Positions 1,799 through 13,054 of a DNA stretch of 60,791 nucleotides are shown here, piece after piece (the first letter of the stretch is position 1; every line of letters begins with the position of its first letter). The position numbers and the translations under genes were made by a program. The DNA comes from a virus. Lineage: Duplodnaviria > Caudoviricetes. The notes under the pieces are model-generated. The model made no database searches, was not told the DNA's origin, and was given only the letters and a program-made list of their open reading frames with translations. The stretch is from IMG/VR virus record IMGVR_UViG_3300023313_000007, positions 1 through 60,791 of that record. One strand, given 5' to 3'.

Positions 1799-3583
1799 AT
1801 GTTTGTATTATCTGGGGGAAATGTCTCCAACCTTAATAACTTTGTGTTACCTGTTATCAAAGGGGTAAAAAATGCTAAAGCCAAGTTTATAACCTTCGAG
1901 GATTATAAAACTATGGCCATTCCCAAGGGGAGTGTCGTCTTAGCTTTAGGTAATAAGTCCTTAGAGCTTCTACAGGACGAAGGAGCTATCCCCAAAAATA
2001 GGGCTATGGCCTCCATGCGAGGGCAGGAGATTGTTTTTAATGGTAGCTCGTGGTTCTTCTCCTATGACCCATATATAATTACACAAGACTATTCCAAGAA
2101 GACTCTAGTAGCTTGGGATATTAAGTTAGCCCTAAGGAAGGAGCTCACAGGTAGTACTGCCCCCGAGGTAGGGACTTATAGCTTTGTCGATGACTGGCAG
2201 TTTTTTATTAAGAAGATTGAGGACACCTATGCTAAGACAGGAAAAGCTGTAGCAGTATGTTGTGACACTGAGACTATTGGGCTAAACCCTTATCTTGAGG
2301 ATAAATGGTTAGAGTCTATACAGTTCTGCTTAGAGGAGGGAGTGGCATACTGTCAGAGGTTTAGAACCTTAGCTAACCAGCCCCTAGTTGGAGATACCAT
2401 CTGGAATCAAATTGACTGGATTCTTAATAGCCCTAAGGTAAAAATAGTTGGAGCTAACTTTAAATATGACCTTCGATGGATGCTTGTTAAATGGGACATG
2501 ACTTGCACCAATTATGCTTTTGACACCACTTTAGTAGGGTCACTATTAGATGAGAATAGGTCTAATAGTCTGGAGACCCACGCTAAGGTGTACACCTCTA
2601 TGGGTGGGTATGATGCAACCATGAATACAACCTATGATAAAGGTAGAATGGATTTAATACCAGATGATGACTTTTTAACCTATTCAGCAGGGGATGTAGA
2701 TGCTTGCCTAAGAGTATATGTTGAACTTAGAAAGGAGTTACTCCAAGACCCTTTTTTAACCCGCTTCTATGTCCGACTCTTACATAGAAGCAATATAGCC
2801 TTTATGGATATGGAGTGTTTGGGGGTATGCTTAGATAAAGAATACCAAGGCTCTTTAGCTTTAGAATTGGAACAGGATAGGCTTAATGTTTCTACAGCTA
2901 TGCTAGAGAAATTACCTGTTAAGTTAAGATTAAAACATGCAGATAATCTGAGTATTAGACCTGCCATATTGAAAGACTACTTTTTCGGGGCTAGAGGGTT
3001 AGGGCTACCCCCCAAACTACTAACAGAAAAGACACAGCAGCCCTCTACAGCCCTAGAGCATTTTATGATGTTCTCTGATTGCCCAGAGGCTACGGAATTT
3101 GTATCCCTGTTAAAGAAGTATGGGAGTGCTGGAAAAACATTGTCTACCTATGTTGTAGGGTTCAATAAGCACCTACAGGCTGATGGTAGGTTTCACCCAG
3201 ATTATATGCTACACAAGGGGGACTATAATGGTGCGGCTGACTCTGGGACGGATACAGGCAGAAGTTCATGTAAGTCCCCTGCATTACAATGTCTACCCGC
3301 AGACGCTGAGGTTCTTACTGACCTTGGAGTAATGCCTATGCTCGACATTATAGAAGGGTGTGAGGGCGGTGTACCCGTACAAGTATTAACCCATACAGGT
3401 GAGTGGAAGCCCGTGGTTGGAACCTACAGGAATGGGGTACAGCCTTTACACGAGTTCACATTAGCCGATGGGAAGACCTTACAGTGTACAGGAAATCACC
3501 CAATACTCACCACTAAGGGATTTATACTTGCAAAAGACATTACCAAAGAGCACACCTTTATGGTGAGGGGGACTAATGAATAG
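1799..3583 (+). CDS. polA: Family A DNA polymerase, N-terminal part (degenerate UDG-like domain, 3'-5' exonuclease, thumb) ending in N-intein
   Basis: Exo motifs CDTETIGL, NFKYDL, YSAGDVDA; PolA motif TGRSSCKSPALQ followed directly by intein block A CLPADAEVLT; SD AGGAGG. Confidence 0.93.
   Translation: MFVLSGGNVSNLNNFVLPVIKGVKNAKAKFITFEDYKTMAIPKGSVVLALGNKSLELLQDEGAIPKNRAMASMRGQEIVFNGSSWFFSYDPYIITQDYSKKTLVAWDIKLALRKELTGSTAPEVGTYSFVDDWQFFIKKIEDTYAKTGKAVAVCCDTETIGLNPYLEDKWLESIQFCLEEGVAYCQRFRTLANQPLVGDTIWNQIDWILNSPKVKIVGANFKYDLRWMLVKWDMTCTNYAFDTTLVGSLLDENRSNSLETHAKVYTSMGGYDATMNTTYDKGRMDLIPDDDFLTYSAGDVDACLRVYVELRKELLQDPFLTRFYVRLLHRSNIAFMDMECLGVCLDKEYQGSLALELEQDRLNVSTAMLEKLPVKLRLKHADNLSIRPAILKDYFFGARGLGLPPKLLTEKTQQPSTALEHFMMFSDCPEATEFVSLLKKYGSAGKTLSTYVVGFNKHLQADGRFHPDYMLHKGDYNGAADSGTDTGRSSCKSPALQCLPADAEVLTDLGVMPMLDIIEGCEGGVPVQVLTHTGEWKPVVGTYRNGVQPLHEFTLADGKTLQCTGNHPILTTKGFILAKDITKEHTFMVRGTNE
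3290..3580 (+). mobile_element. Split intein, N-fragment (IntN, 97 aa)
   Basis: Starts at Cys1 (TGT 3290) CLPADAEVLT; block B LQCTGNHPIL; stop TAG 3581-3583 with no block F/G in frame. Confidence 0.88.
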
Positions 3584-3722
3584 TGATTATGAGGTATCAA
3601 AGAAGGCAGGGTTTAAAGAATCAAAATTAGTAGGCATAAAGAGGGTAGACCCTCAAGAAACATATGACTTAACTATACAAGATAGCCATTCTTTTGTGGC
3701 TAACGATATTGTGGTACATAAT
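3576..3722 (+). mobile_element. Split intein, C-fragment (IntC, 49 aa)
   Basis: Blocks F/G ETYDLTIQDSHSFVANDIVVHN followed by Thr+1 (ACA 3723). Confidence 0.88.
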
Positions 3723-5633
3723 ACAATACCCAAGCATACAAGTTGGGCAAAGCCTTTGCGGAAGGCGTACAATGCCCCAGAGGGGATGGTAATATTATCC
3801 TGTGACTATTCCGCAGGAGAGATGCGGGTGGCGGCAGACTTTGCTAATGAAGAAAATATGCTAAATGCTTTTAATACTGGGGTAGATATTCATTGTGCCA
3901 CCGCAGCAGGATTGATGGGAATGAACCTAGCTGATTTCATGTTACTAAAGGACGCTGACCCCAAAGCTTTTAAGAGCGGTCGCCAAGGCGCGAAGGCTGG
4001 TAACTTCGGCTGCCTTCTAGGGCTATCCTATTGCATTACAGATAAAGGGTCTGTACAGTTGCGTAATATAAAAAAAGACCACAAGGTATGGGACGGGGAA
4101 AACTTTGTCAGTCACGATGGTGTGATTTACCAAGGCGAGCAATGGGTGATAAAGTACCAAGGCTTAGAAGCAACTCCATGCCACAATGTTTGGGTTGAGG
4201 ACGGTACACATGAAGGGAAAAAATGTAGCCTTTACGAGGCCGCCACTAAAAAACTTAACCTTAGAAGAACTAGCCCAAAGATTGAAAGAAAAGGACTTAG
4301 GCACTATAACCCTAGACCTAAGTACTCTACGAAGGGAAAAACGGCACAGAATGGTGGACGGTACTTGCTCCGATTGCGGAGAGACAAAGACCTATTATGC
4401 TTCAAACATAACAAGAGGAATGACCACCACTTGCCGTTGCCAGAGGAATGTAAAGTACCCCAATCTGGTACACGCAAGGGTATTAGGGAATCGTTACGAT
4501 TCTATGGTACAGCGGTGCGAAAGAGATACCCATGTCTCCTCCCACAGATACAAAGGGCGGGGAATAAAATGCCTGTTCAAGTCAAGAGAAGACTTTGTAT
4601 ATTGGGTACTAGAGAATCATTACAGGGACGATTACAAAGGGTTGGAGTTCGACAGGATAGACAACGATGGGCATTACGAGCCAGAAAATTTAAGGCTGGT
4701 ATCCTCGAAAGAGAACAAACGAAACCTGCCCAACAATGTGTACCTAATATACAAGGGGGTTCGGATGTATTGGCAGGATTTCAAAAGTCCTTACAGTCCG
4801 AGAAGAACCCAAGCGTTTGCGAGCAAGGGGATGTCGGGGGAGGATATTATCCTCCGTGCAAAGACATCAGTCCAGAAAAGGTGCAAGAGTTGGAGGCTCA
4901 TGGAATTACGCTTAGAAAAGCTAGGGTCTATGACATCCTAAATGCAGGGGTAAACCACAGATTTACATGCTCTGGGGTATTAGTAAGTAATTGCCTGTAT
5001 GGTATGAGTGCTGGAGGGTATCAAGCCTATGCGGAAGCTACCTACGGTGTTATTATGACTATGCAGGAGGCAGAGGTGGCTAGAGAAAGATTTTTTGGCA
5101 TGTACCCAGCCCTACCAGAATGGCATACTAGAACCAAGAACTTTGCTAGGGCTAATGGGTATGTTCGTTCGCCTTTAGGTAGATTAAGACACCTGCCCTT
5201 AATAACTGCTAGAGATGGGGCTATTAGGTCTAAGGCAGAAAGGAATGCGGTAAACTCCTCAGTGCAGGGTACTTTATCTGACCTTACACAGTTATCCTTA
5301 GTCATCTTGAGGGAGACTTATGGTTTTAAGGACTTACAGCCTCTGATGATGGTGCATGATGATTTAAAATTTTATGTACCTAAAGACGATGCCCTTATGT
5401 GGGCAGATAGGGTATGTAATGTTATGAGTACCCTACCTTTGAAGGAGGAGTTTGATTGGTCTCCTCGTATAACCTTTAATGCTGACCCAGAGGTAGGACT
5501 TACTTTGGCTAGTATGGAAGAACTAGAGACATGCCCTAATTGTGGGGAGCGTAATCTAGTTCATAGGGCTGTAGGAGAGGACTATTGTCTACGCGATTAT
5601 TACACAGGAGATAAACATACATGCGCTCAGTAA
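3576..5633 (+). CDS. polA: Family A DNA polymerase, C-terminal part, with N-terminal C-intein and an internal cis intein
   Basis: After VVHN/T: motif A CDYSAGEMRV; motif B RQGAKAGNFG/CLYG interrupted by an intein; AERNAVNSSVQGT; motif C MVHDD; SD-like GAGGGGG before ATG. Confidence 0.93.
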   Translation: MNSDYEVSKKAGFKESKLVGIKRVDPQETYDLTIQDSHSFVANDIVVHNTIPKHTSWAKPLRKAYNAPEGMVILSCDYSAGEMRVAADFANEENMLNAFNTGVDIHCATAAGLMGMNLADFMLLKDADPKAFKSGRQGAKAGNFGCLLGLSYCITDKGSVQLRNIKKDHKVWDGENFVSHDGVIYQGEQWVIKYQGLEATPCHNVWVEDGTHEGKKCSLYEAATKKLNLRRTSPKIERKGLRHYNPRPKYSTKGKTAQNGGRYLLRLRRDKDLLCFKHNKRNDHHLPLPEECKVPQSGTRKGIRESLRFYGTAVRKRYPCLLPQIQRAGNKMPVQVKRRLCILGTRESLQGRLQRVGVRQDRQRWALRARKFKAGILEREQTKPAQQCVPNIQGGSDVLAGFQKSLQSEKNPSVCEQGDVGGGYYPPCKDISPEKVQELEAHGITLRKARVYDILNAGVNHRFTCSGVLVSNCLYGMSAGGYQAYAEATYGVIMTMQEAEVARERFFGMYPALPEWHTRTKNFARANGYVRSPLGRLRHLPLITARDGAIRSKAERNAVNSSVQGTLSDLTQLSLVILRETYGFKDLQPLMMVHDDLKFYVPKDDALMWADRVCNVMSTLPLKEEFDWSPRITFNADPEVGLTLASMEELETCPNCGERNLVHRAVGEDYCLRDYYTGDKHTCAQ
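4011..4991 (+). mobile_element. Cis intein (327 aa) in PolA motif B
   Basis: CLLGLSYCITDKG start; block B LEATPCHNVW; blocks F/G RVYDILNAGVNHRFTCSGVLVSN then Cys+1; excision restores AKAGNFG-CLYG. Confidence 0.88.
4210..4941 (+). CDS. HNH-family homing endonuclease nested in the +1 frame inside the polA intein
   Basis: CSDCG...TTTCRC Zn motif, YDSMVQRC, YKGRGI, DRIDNDGHYEPENLRLVSSKENKRN; GAGG at 4197-4200 favours ATG 4210 (ORF open from 4186). Confidence 0.85.
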   Translation: MKGKNVAFTRPPLKNLTLEELAQRLKEKDLGTITLDLSTLRREKRHRMVDGTCSDCGETKTYYASNITRGMTTTCRCQRNVKYPNLVHARVLGNRYDSMVQRCERDTHVSSHRYKGRGIKCLFKSREDFVYWVLENHYRDDYKGLEFDRIDNDGHYEPENLRLVSSKENKRNLPNNVYLIYKGVRMYWQDFKSPYSPRRTQAFASKGMSGEDIILRAKTSVQKRCKSWRLMELRLEKLGSMTS

Positions 5634-11413: not shown

Positions 11414-13054
11414 ATGAAAATGACCAAAAGCACCTACCTCCAATGTTTCCATCTAGTACATGGTGACACTTATGATTATTCCCCCACTAAATACTCTAGG
11501 GCGCATGACTATATCCTTATAAGGTGTAAAACTCACGGTTACTTCTCCCAAAAAGCCTATGCTCACAATCAAGGGCAGGGATGTCCTAAGTGTAAAGGGG
11601 CTAAGATACAAAAGGCTCAAAGGCAATCCTCCGTGGCCGCTGTAAAGGTCTTAGAGGAGGTACACAAAGGAAAATACGATTATAGTAATGTGGAGTACAT
11701 TAACTCCAGCTCTAAGATAGTAATACGATGCCCCCTACATGGAGAATTTACACAGACTTATGCCTCCCACCAACAAGGTAGGGGTTGCCCCCAATGTGGC
11801 AGGGATAAGACTGCTACTAAAGGAACAGTCAATCAAAAAGTCATACTGGATAGGTTTAAGGGTAGGCATGGAGATGTATATGACTATTCGTCTATGGTGT
11901 ACACCTCTGGAAGGACTCCTGTAAAGATACAATGCAGAGAGCATGGAGACTTTTTACAAACCCCTAACGACCATAGCCGAGGGGCAGGATGCCCTCTATG
12001 CAAGGCCAGTAAGCTTAGTAAGTCTCAGCTATTCACCCATGCAGACTGCCTAGCTAAATTCATGGCAGCGCATAATGGCAGGTATAATTATTCTAAGGTG
12101 AAGTATAAAAGGAGTACTGATAAGGTAACTATAATTTGCTCTAAGCATGGAGAGTTTAAGCAAACCCCTGTATCTCATTGGTCTGGCAGAGGGTGCGCGT
12201 CCTGCTCCCACTCTGGAGCTTCTGAGTCTGAACTTAGGTTTAGAGCCGCAGTGCAGTCGGTATATAAAGGCACTATACACTGTGGGGATAAAACCCTCCT
12301 AGATAAAAAGGAATTAGACTTATATCTACCAGAGGTACAATTAGGTATTGAATTTGACGGCACATACTGGCACTCGGGCGATAGGGTTAAATCCAGAAGA
12401 CAACATTTAGATAAATTTAACGAGGCTAGAAGTAAGGGGGTTAGAGTTTTGTTTATTAGGGAGGATGAATGGGATAATAAACCCGAGATAGTCCTCAGTA
12501 TTATCCGTAATGCTACAGGAGGTAATAGTACTAAGATATACGCTCGTAAATGTGAAATTATGGAGTTGGGTACTAAGGATTACCTAGCCTTTTGTAATGA
12601 AAACCATTTACAAGGAGCGGTGGGAGCCTCTAAGAAACTAGGACTATATTACGAAGGTAATCTTGTAGCTTTAGCAGGGTTTTCCAAGAGTTCTAAATAT
12701 GGATATATGCTAGCTAGGTTTTCCGTGAAACTAAATACCTCTGTAGTTGGTGGGCTGAGCAAACTTATGACAGCCTTCGGGGAGCCTGTATATACCTACT
12801 GTGATAAAAGAATGTTCGGAGGGTTAGGATATTTGTCCGCAGGGTTTGAAGTAGTAGAATTTGGTGATACCCCAGATTTATGGTTTACCAAACAGGGCAA
12901 GGTACTTAGTAGGGCTGCTATGACCAAGCCTGCCATGCAAAAAAGATGGGGTATCTTGGAGGAAGGTACGCAAGAATCTATTGCTGCCTCTCATGGGTGG
13001 GACGCTATAAGGTACTGTGGAAATATGCTATTAAAGTGGTATAGACCTAAATAA
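11414..13054 (+). CDS. Free-standing Hef-like homing endonuclease (4 Zn-finger repeats plus Vsr/PD-(D/E)XK-like nuclease)
   Basis: Four repeats Y(D/N)YSxxxY...CxxHGxFxQ...H..GxGCxxC; nuclease motif ELDLYLPEVQLGIEFDGTYWHS; C-terminal ENHLQG...RFSVK...GGLSKL domain. Confidence 0.8.
   Translation: MKMTKSTYLQCFHLVHGDTYDYSPTKYSRAHDYILIRCKTHGYFSQKAYAHNQGQGCPKCKGAKIQKAQRQSSVAAVKVLEEVHKGKYDYSNVEYINSSSKIVIRCPLHGEFTQTYASHQQGRGCPQCGRDKTATKGTVNQKVILDRFKGRHGDVYDYSSMVYTSGRTPVKIQCREHGDFLQTPNDHSRGAGCPLCKASKLSKSQLFTHADCLAKFMAAHNGRYNYSKVKYKRSTDKVTIICSKHGEFKQTPVSHWSGRGCASCSHSGASESELRFRAAVQSVYKGTIHCGDKTLLDKKELDLYLPEVQLGIEFDGTYWHSGDRVKSRRQHLDKFNEARSKGVRVLFIREDEWDNKPEIVLSIIRNATGGNSTKIYARKCEIMELGTKDYLAFCNENHLQGAVGASKKLGLYYEGNLVALAGFSKSSKYGYMLARFSVKLNTSVVGGLSKLMTAFGEPVYTYCDKRMFGGLGYLSAGFEVVEFGDTPDLWFTKQGKVLSRAAMTKPAMQKRWGILEEGTQESIAASHGWDAIRYCGNMLLKWYRPK

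Follow-up and report, generated by a model that had tools for sequence, protein, structure and literature searches.

We analyzed a window of 60,791 bases, the whole of the IMG/VR virus record IMGVR_UViG_3300023313_000007 from a tailed phage (Caudoviricetes), in which the second of two inteins in the family A DNA polymerase gene (polA) shares its DNA with an open reading frame (ORF) for a protein related to HNH endonucleases. Positions are those of the window, and polA, its inteins, and the nested ORF all lie on the plus strand. Intein 2 has 327 amino acids (positions 4011 to 4991) and interrupts polymerase motif B (..AKAGNFG / intein / CLYGMSAGG). The nested ORF is in the +1 frame relative to polA (4186 to 4941); it encodes 251 amino acids from the ATG at 4186, or 243 from the ATG at 4210, and its frame is open from position 4168. 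We consider it likely that intein 2 is a selfish cassette written in two frames, with the two lobes of a HINT splicing domain and a filler in the polA frame and a homing nuclease in the +1 frame. The anatomy, the conservation across the family, and the frame-specific selection are shown below by computation, and internal initiation, cleavage, homing, and splicing competence are inferred.

The two frames are open over the same DNA for approximately 774 nucleotides (nt); an earlier note, made from the letters of the sequence, had reported the double openness correctly but put its length at about 730 nt. Between 3567 and 5633, the polA frame (frame 0) is free of stop codons. In the +1 frame, 10 stops lie in 3913 to 4165, none in 4168 to 4938, and 6 in 4939 to 5056, and the TAA that ends the nested ORF (4939 to 4941) falls within the codons of intein block F (..ILN..). 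Inside the nested ORF the +2 frame has 24 stops, and all three minus frames are closed. For a chance test, the nested ORF was taken as coding, and three randomization schemes were run 20,000 times each. The polA frame was left open in none of the 20,000 runs, whether synonymous codons were shuffled (12.5 stops expected), codons were redrawn with the codon usage of the window (25.7 stops expected), or the codon order of the +1 ORF was shuffled (14.7 stops expected). Across the 19 long open frames of the window, the longest other off-frame open run in the corresponding −1 register was 84 codons. The dual openness is well beyond chance, and the nested layout is confirmed as real.

Among the circumstances that, according to the earlier note, would undo its proposal is a pair of compensating indels, introduced in sequencing or assembly, that displaced the HNH of a conventional intein from the intein's own frame. 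Homopolymers do occur close to the two ends of the overlap (A6 at 4218 to 4223, A6 at 4248 to 4253, and G5 at 4836 to 4840). An in-frame nuclease, however, would give the polA frame no reason to stay free of stops, as the shuffles above illustrate (0/20,000), and the nuclease sequence is in the +1 frame in all 79 relatives that we kept from a family scan of IMG/VR (78 with the full ORF and 1 with a remnant), which come from different samples. The same +1 layout is present in the deposited genomes of phages vB_Gva_AB1 and Javan113. Moreover, the separate assembly by Logan is identical base for base, with a contig covering 3500 to 5100 at 0 differences, 0 gaps, and a mean depth of 27. That contig derives from the only DNA run that holds the stretch, possibly the record's own source, and therefore represents a second assembly and not second data. 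Taking the relatives and the second assembly together, we regard compensating indels as excluded, with a vanishingly small probability of being the explanation.

Read in the polA frame, the intein begins with Cys1 (codon 4011 to 4013) and ends with Asn (4989 to 4991), followed by the +1 Cys (4992 to 4994). Block B reads TPCH (T55-P-C-H58), and the C terminus is VLVSN (4977 to 4991); the ends and the non-His penultimate residue are thus as the earlier note described them. Among 52 family members, C1, T55, H58, and N327 are invariant, and the window copy keeps these as well as the family invariants D308 and the +1 Cys. Removal of the intein leaves continuous host sequence, with ..RQGAKAGNFG running into CLYGMS.. 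to give polA motif B. An AlphaFold2 model of the polA-frame product, built on the 52-sequence alignment, folds confidently in two beta-rich lobes only (predicted local distance difference test score [pLDDT], 80 to 97). The N-terminal lobe (residues 1 to 90; positions 4011 to 4280; pLDDT, 89 to 97) contains blocks A and B, and the C-terminal lobe (residues 281 to 327; positions 4851 to 4991; pLDDT, 80 to 96) contains blocks F and G and the terminal VLVSN. Between them lies the filler (residues 92 to 277; positions 4284 to 4841), a stop-free stretch rich in Arg, Lys, and Gln that is predicted to be disordered, with pLDDT below 50 and no secondary structure. Its Arg content is 13.4%, and its length is ∼186 residues, in place of the ∼240 that the earlier note had given for the Arg-rich middle. 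The only conserved motif of the filler, RQDRQRWALR, is the polA-frame reading of the core motif of the nuclease. Codons that are confidently structured in both frames are limited to about 12 on the 5′ side and about 28 on the 3′ side.

On sequence and modeled structure, we assign intein 2 to the class-1-type inteins, with a HINT splicing domain that consists of two lobes and is predicted to splice. Two results weigh against this assignment. The penultimate residue is Ser, so the His expected in block G is missing, and most relatives end in LVHN; in addition, the Pfam intein models gave no match to 4011 to 4991 at an E value of ≤0.1. Many active inteins are without a penultimate His. The Pfam families PF14890 and PF13403 are precomputed for the relatives P0002 and P0027. 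A group I intron was set aside as a reading of the insert, as the polA frame is open and the junction residues are those of an intein. Intein 2 is likewise not of the fractured-gene or split form, given that the polA frame is unbroken from 3567 to 5633.

The +1 product contains every motif that the earlier note had listed: CxxC...CxC (C61, C64, C83, and C85), SMVQRC, YKGRGI, and DRIDNDGHYEPENLR (4651 to 4695). Its matches to PHROG profiles named HNH endonuclease range from an E value of 8e−29 to 8e−10 and include phrog_374 (7.9e−29), phrog_3377 (2.6e−21), and phrog_2081, while the endonuclease VII profile reached an E value of 0.0014 only. A library of 1.8 billion proteins yielded 31,433 homologues at an E value of ≤1e−3, the best of which are ∼250 amino acids long and 45 to 53% identical. 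In an alignment of 80 sequences, the cysteines of a zinc-ribbon-like four-Cys motif (4366 to 4440) are invariant or at least 90% conserved. The core motif, D156-R157-I-D...Y164...N168-L-R170...N180 (4651 to 4728), was delimited on the same family alignment; R157, Y164, and N168 are invariant, as is R110, and N180 is at least 90% conserved, with N168 and N180 matched to HNH motif positions by sequence pattern only. The AlphaFold2 model built on these 80 sequences has a mean pLDDT of 91.7, high over residues 21 to 250 and weak over the first 20. Compared against BFVD, it matched 95 phage HNH endonuclease models at an E value of ≤1e−3 (best, 2.2e−12). The best match among solved chains was PacI (3m7k_A; Z score, 6.7; root mean square deviation, 2.5 Å over 80 residues; model residues 90 to 184), and Gme HNH had a Z score of 3.2. 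The helical tail at the C terminus is probably DNA binding.

Several observations count against calling this protein an HNH nuclease. Where the HNH motif usually has DH there is DR, and R157 is invariant in the 80 sequences; the canonical catalytic His is replaced by an invariant Arg, and nuclease activity is therefore not assured. Pfam, including its HNH models, gave no match to the +1 ORF. Searches of PDB sequences with the +1 ORF and with the 80-sequence profile returned nothing significant (I-HmuI at an E value of 0.82), a Foldseek search of the model against the PDB found no match at an E value of ≤1e−3, and the Z score of 6.7 for PacI is a middling one. The nuclease of the earlier note is HNH-like, with Arg in the place of the catalytic His. 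These same points could be read to mean that the +1 protein, though real and conserved, is a DNA-binding or nicking factor with another function in the phage or the element, its catalytic His having been lost; the invariant Arg at the position of the general base and the absence of a significant sequence match to solved HNH enzymes would both agree with that. Yet PacI (3m7k / 3ldy), a zinc-bearing beta-beta-alpha-metal enzyme, is active as an HNH enzyme although it has no catalytic His, a Tyr acting in its stead (PMC5714182), and Y164 is invariant in our alignment. Furthermore, one cassette is scattered over very divergent polA genes at a single site, and apparently over SF2 helicases (at the protein level only), as a homing element would be. 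We think a role other than that of a homing nuclease improbable. For a homing nuclease, Y164 may take over as a PacI-like catalytic Tyr. The likeness to PacI consists of the structural match to the core and the shared lack of the His; in contrast, PacI is a restriction enzyme rather than the nuclease of a mobile element and has no detectable sequence relationship to the +1 protein.

The layout is not confined to the window. When the intein portion of the polA-frame product served as the query, it matched >100 polymerases and some SF2 helicases over the full intein, middle included, at 28 to 35% identity, and the conserved motif of the relatives' middle, RQDRQ(Q/R)xxLR, is again the polA-frame reading of a nuclease motif, DRIDNxGxYxPxNLR. 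At the DNA level, a query with the +1 protein as a single sequence found no relative, whereas the alignment-based scan did find them: at least 580 stretches of IMG/VR were matched, tblastn confirmed at least 523 of them, and we kept 79 loci. Both splice motifs were recognized by pattern in 72 loci, all of which have zero stops in the polA frame, a +1 stretch open for 576 to 1,051 nt, and 3 to 30 stops in the +2 frame. All 72 +1 ORFs are homologous to that of the window (E values of 5e−16 to 5e−87), and all 72 inteins are inserted at the same polA motif B site. Seven loci were missed by pattern and examined with tblastn; the +1 layout recurs in six of them, and the seventh (L075) carries a mini-intein. 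The nuclease ORF is thus in the +1 frame with an open polA frame in 78 of the 79 kept loci and in the frame of the intein in none, and no split form of intein 2 was seen among the loci examined. Nesting of this sort is therefore what a large family normally shows and not a curiosity of one gene.

Two relatives have lost most or all of the middle. The mini-intein of L075 (333 to 863) retains the last 62 nuclease residues only, still in the +1 frame, and L082, at the 3′ end of a metagenome contig, carries a mini-intein at the same polA site from which the whole middle is gone. Both are consistent with loss of the nuclease in a homing cycle and with a middle that is dispensable for splicing. Several database proteins of ∼250 amino acids start with the +1 reading of YDGLTATPDH (for example, P0131, MTDS...) and are therefore products of nested ORFs too. 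Related inteins in six SF2 helicases (P0069, P0084, P0101, P0104, P0114, and P0116) aligned over their full length, middle included. P0069 has the polA-frame "shadow" motif RQDRQR, and P0104 has a degenerate form of it, DRPHQQQR. The helicase inteins may share the nested layout, as judged from this shadow motif; DNA scans for the helicase-borne P0069 and P0104 returned polA loci only (L081 and L082).

Members of the family are also found in deposited phage genomes. No GenBank phage matched 3500 to 5700 of the window by blastn. When GenBank phages were searched by tblastn with the nuclease, 7 of the 40 matches listed fell under a feature annotated as DNA polymerase only; these belong to five Streptococcus Javan phages, PhiSdyV1524, and the Gardnerella phage vB_Gva_AB1. 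In vB_Gva_AB1 (MW387018.1, 4521 to 7424) and Javan113 (MK448670.1, 1 to 2883), the nuclease is in the +1 frame relative to the coding sequence, and no separate gene is annotated. A further nuclease relative lies under a dUTPase-type annotation in Enterococcus phage TJE2 (ON506928.1, 46117 to 46767), which could be a further nested case or reflect misannotation.

To compare selection on the frames, we used 69 distinct inteins (2,346 pairs) and the central overlap only. Amino acid identity in the nuclease frame was about twice that in the polA frame in every divergence class but the closest (≥90% DNA identity), in which all three frames exceeded 93% identity. Over the 2,346 pairs, identity in the polA frame equaled that in the stop-filled +2 control, and differences were concentrated at third codon positions of the nuclease. 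For the nuclease frame, the polA frame, and the noncoding +2 control, the ratios of nonsynonymous to synonymous substitution (dN/dS; Nei-Gojobori medians of 24 close pairs with 75 to 99.5% DNA identity) were 0.095, 1.36, and 1.49, respectively. Purifying selection restricted to the nuclease frame is what the earlier note had set beforehand as the expected outcome. Because dN/dS and identity in the polA frame match those of the +2 control, the middle appears constrained only to stay open, and the idea that a separate nuclease in the +1 frame leaves the polA-frame reading as dispensable filler gains support from both measures. Stops were absent from the polA frame in all 69 inteins, compared with ∼10.3 expected, and only 8 of 13,800 shuffles had none. 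It is important to note that the alignment was guided by the nuclease frame, which favors identity in that frame and so weighs against the comparison, although the contrast between the polA and +2 frames and the dN/dS pairs at ≥92% DNA identity are little affected. A second point on that side is that the nearest relative of the window is 57% identical in DNA and the window is in none of the close pairs. Selection was thus measured on relatives only, and the window copy could have been recently inactivated.

How the nuclease would be translated is suggested by its start site. In 53 of the 69 distinct inteins, the WDG motif is followed at a distance of 67 nt by an ATG, which arises from the Tyr codon and next G of the splicing-domain peptide ..EV(I)TY(D/E)G.., and in 48 of those 53, the preceding K/R-E-V codons spell a Shine-Dalgarno (SD)-like AGGAGG or GAGG. 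TAT encodes this overlapped Tyr in 56 of 66 cases versus 390 of 956 (41%) in the flanking extein, a bias in the sequences that indicates selection in favor of internal initiation. The window itself is without the family's usual SD and ATG and has +1 stops at 4147, 4150, and 4165, which tells against a nuclease expressed in the family's manner here; with the usual start absent and these stops upstream, the start in the window (4186 or 4210) is a guess. A candidate ribosome-binding site, GAGGA (4197 to 4201), precedes the ATG at 4210 to 4212 by 8 nt (the pair spanning 4197 to 4212), as read from the sequence, and the alternative ATG at 4186 has no SD. Since the model shows no structure for the first 20 residues counted from 4186, the protein could begin at either ATG.

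The missing start bears on two alternatives. One is that the nested ORF of the window copy is a relic, leaving a mini-intein with a long filler whose nuclease is unexpressed or inactive. The lost canonical start with its upstream stops, the loss of the nuclease in L075 and L082, and the want of close relatives on which to measure selection in the window lineage all speak for it. On the other hand, the 251-codon ORF is intact, and it retains all listed invariant and near-invariant residues of the family, in a list that was indexed on the window's own residues. The confident fold (pLDDT, 91.7) and a replacement ATG behind GAGGA argue in the same direction, and a dead ORF should gather stops, as the +2 frame did (24). 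We consider a relic unlikely. The other alternative is that the +1 protein is made by ribosomal +1 slippage, for example on the A6 run at 4218 to 4223, giving a fusion of the N-extein, the N-terminal lobe, and the nuclease. Besides the absence of the usual start, it could draw on the position of the A6 run just after the ATG at 4210 and on two proteins that have an N-terminal part of polA in frame with the nuclease. In P0187, the polA N-part and the intein N-lobe are joined in frame to a nuclease without the Cys module, after which the protein ends; in P0150, polA motif B runs directly into the full nuclease with no splicing lobe. However, these two may have arisen by frameshift or deletion, may come from broken genes, or may represent a nuclease inserted on its own with no intein, and a dedicated SD and ATG with a strong TAT bias, present in most relatives (53/69), would be needless for slippage. 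Slippage is in our estimation very unlikely.

Under the two-frame cassette that we favor, ribosomes translating polA would read through the filler, ∼186 stop-free disordered residues, and splicing would then remove the filler together with both lobes and restore motif B. Other ribosomes would initiate internally, in the window copy most likely at the ATG at 4210 behind GAGGA, and make the nuclease. This would be a site-specific enzyme of ∼245 amino acids in the His-Me finger (HNH) superfamily, with a four-Cys N-terminal module, a core with Arg for His and an invariant Tyr, and a helical tail. By cutting intein-less alleles of polA at motif B, it would bring about homing of the whole cassette. 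Selection would then act on the amino acids of the nuclease in the +1 frame and only against stop codons in the polA frame; in terms of the nuclease, such stop avoidance would mean no codons ending in T before codons starting with AA, AG, or GA.

The earlier note had assumed greater novelty than we can claim, since the architecture is already in the literature. Intein nucleases encoded out of frame or antisense go back to Gorbalenya 1998, as reported by papers that cite it. A close parallel is a cyanobacterial DnaX intein reanalyzed in a 2026 preprint, in which a LAGLIDADG nuclease occupies a +2 ORF, the in-frame middle is disordered, an SD is present, and omega is low in the nested frame only; that preprint calls the layout a rarity. 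Intein 2 shares with the DnaX intein a nuclease ORF between the lobes, on the same strand and in another frame; an extein frame without stops; predicted disorder of the in-frame middle; low omega for the nuclease frame only; and a putative SD upstream. The two differ in that the DnaX case concerns a LAGLIDADG enzyme in +2 in bacterial dnaX, whereas intein 2 has an HNH-like His-Me finger in +1 in motif B of a phage polA. A preprint on phage inteins describes 63 noncanonical inteins in PhagesDB, and its authors predict that such inteins are underannotated and more common than known. These too have a nuclease whose frame differs from that of the splicing domain, and their endonuclease VII type is also a His-Me finger on the same strand. 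However, it is in "frame 3" and matches T4 endonuclease VII (1E7D), while the nuclease of intein 2 belongs to another clade, is in +1, and is found at no fewer than 523 IMG/VR loci.

Related arrangements differ in the host gene or in splicing. The ShiLan domain (Arsenault et al. 2025, PMC11855218) hides an HNH in another frame of a mycobacteriophage DNA methylase gene; like intein 2, it combines an out-of-frame HNH ORF with a stop-free host frame and a nested stop at the very end of the insert. Unlike intein 2, whose filler is within an intein and most of whose relatives have an SD, it has no splicing domain, its filler is thought to be retained, and no ribosome-binding site was found. The split inteins of Dassa 2009 (PMC2677866) have a free-standing nuclease gene between their halves and were placed in a model linking invasion, in-frame capture, and splitting. 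Their nuclease gene, with its own translation signals, stands at the endonuclease position and overlaps the downstream part of the intein, and they are found in phage-like DNA replication genes, as intein 2 is; their host gene, though, is broken and splicing is in trans, whereas the host frame of intein 2 is continuous and its predicted splicing is in cis. Canonical phage polymerase inteins likewise have a nuclease of the HNH superfamily between two HINT lobes but have both activities on one polypeptide, in contrast to the out-of-frame nuclease of intein 2. In open-access PMC and bioRxiv, no description turned up of a polA intein with an out-of-frame HNH, although supplements may list such inteins. 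Intein 2 is thus a member of a described kind of element, apparently a new large family and not a new kind. Whether it is also the type case of a very large, undescribed family at polA motif B, and apparently in SF2 helicases as well (at least 523 IMG/VR loci and >100 protein clusters), defined by an out-of-frame nuclease, a ribosome-binding site and start within splicing codons, and a PacI-like Tyr, is in our judgment an even call. The earlier note's further idea, that this gene shows two stages of split-intein origin, is speculation, compatible with the model of Dassa 2009 and with the split or frameshifted intein 1 described below.

Across the whole family, splicing and homing activities appear to be kept in separate frames of the same DNA, while inteins are usually described as one polypeptide. 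The relatives give large-scale comparative support, through frame-specific dN/dS and a start codon within splicing-domain codons, to a layout known from few cases. Gene callers overlook such nucleases, deposited phage records say only "DNA polymerase," and such inteins are likely misfiled as degenerate or mini-inteins. The family is relevant to models that derive canonical or split inteins from the invasion of inteins by free-standing nuclease genes. A natural disordered linker of ∼186 residues, apparently tolerated by a cis-splicing intein, would be useful for intein engineering. If our reading is correct, out-of-frame nesting would be no rare accident of invasion but a design that is stable and successful, and the family would offer a clean natural system for the origin of overlapping genes in which one frame need only avoid stops.

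The polymerase of the window is split over two ORFs (1799 to 3583 and 3576 to 5633), with the junction inside intein 1. ORF 1 encodes the 3′-5′ exonuclease, the N-terminal part of the polymerase domain, and the N-terminal half of intein 1 (Pfam DNA_pol_A_exo1, E value of 3e−17; DNA_pol_A, E value of 2e−6). ORF 2 (685 amino acids; DNA_pol_A, E value of 7e−42) encodes the C-terminal half of intein 1, polymerase motifs, intein 2, and the remaining polymerase. In translation, the N-terminal half of intein 1 (3290 to 3580; 97 amino acids) starts with CLPADAEV and is closed by the ORF stop TAG at 3581 to 3583. The C-terminal half (3576 to 3722; 49 amino acids), matched by Pfam Intein_splicing over residues 19 to 49 of ORF 2, ends in ...VVHN, with the +1 Thr at 3723. 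Its ATG (3576) overlaps the stop of ORF 1 (ATGAATAG) and follows closely on a GAGGGGG run. If the G5 run at 3566 to 3570 were shorter by one G, the halves would be joined into a single mini-intein equal in length to that of the relative P0002, which carries this intein uninterrupted; intein 1 is therefore either a natural split intein or the product of a one-base frameshift in that run. The bases are identical in the second assembly. At the site of intein 1, the protein P0184 has an intein with in-frame HNH_3 and NUMOD4.

The DNA of the window was located in one microbial-mat metagenome run; no RNA run was among those listed for it, and the one metatranscriptome of the same sample yielded no match. 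Its gene content includes a dUTPase, the family A DNA polymerase, a portal, a head protease, and a tape measure protein. Just upstream of polA, an ORF of 130 amino acids (1389 to 1781) has a Cys-rich tail with several CxxC motifs and no PHROG match at an E value of ≤1e−5. Among the head genes, an ORF of 546 amino acids (11414 to 13054) matches PHROG HNH/homing endonuclease profiles (phrog_559, E value of 1.9e−100; phrog_3339, E value of 2.1e−68) and is, on these profile matches, a candidate for a second selfish element in this phage.

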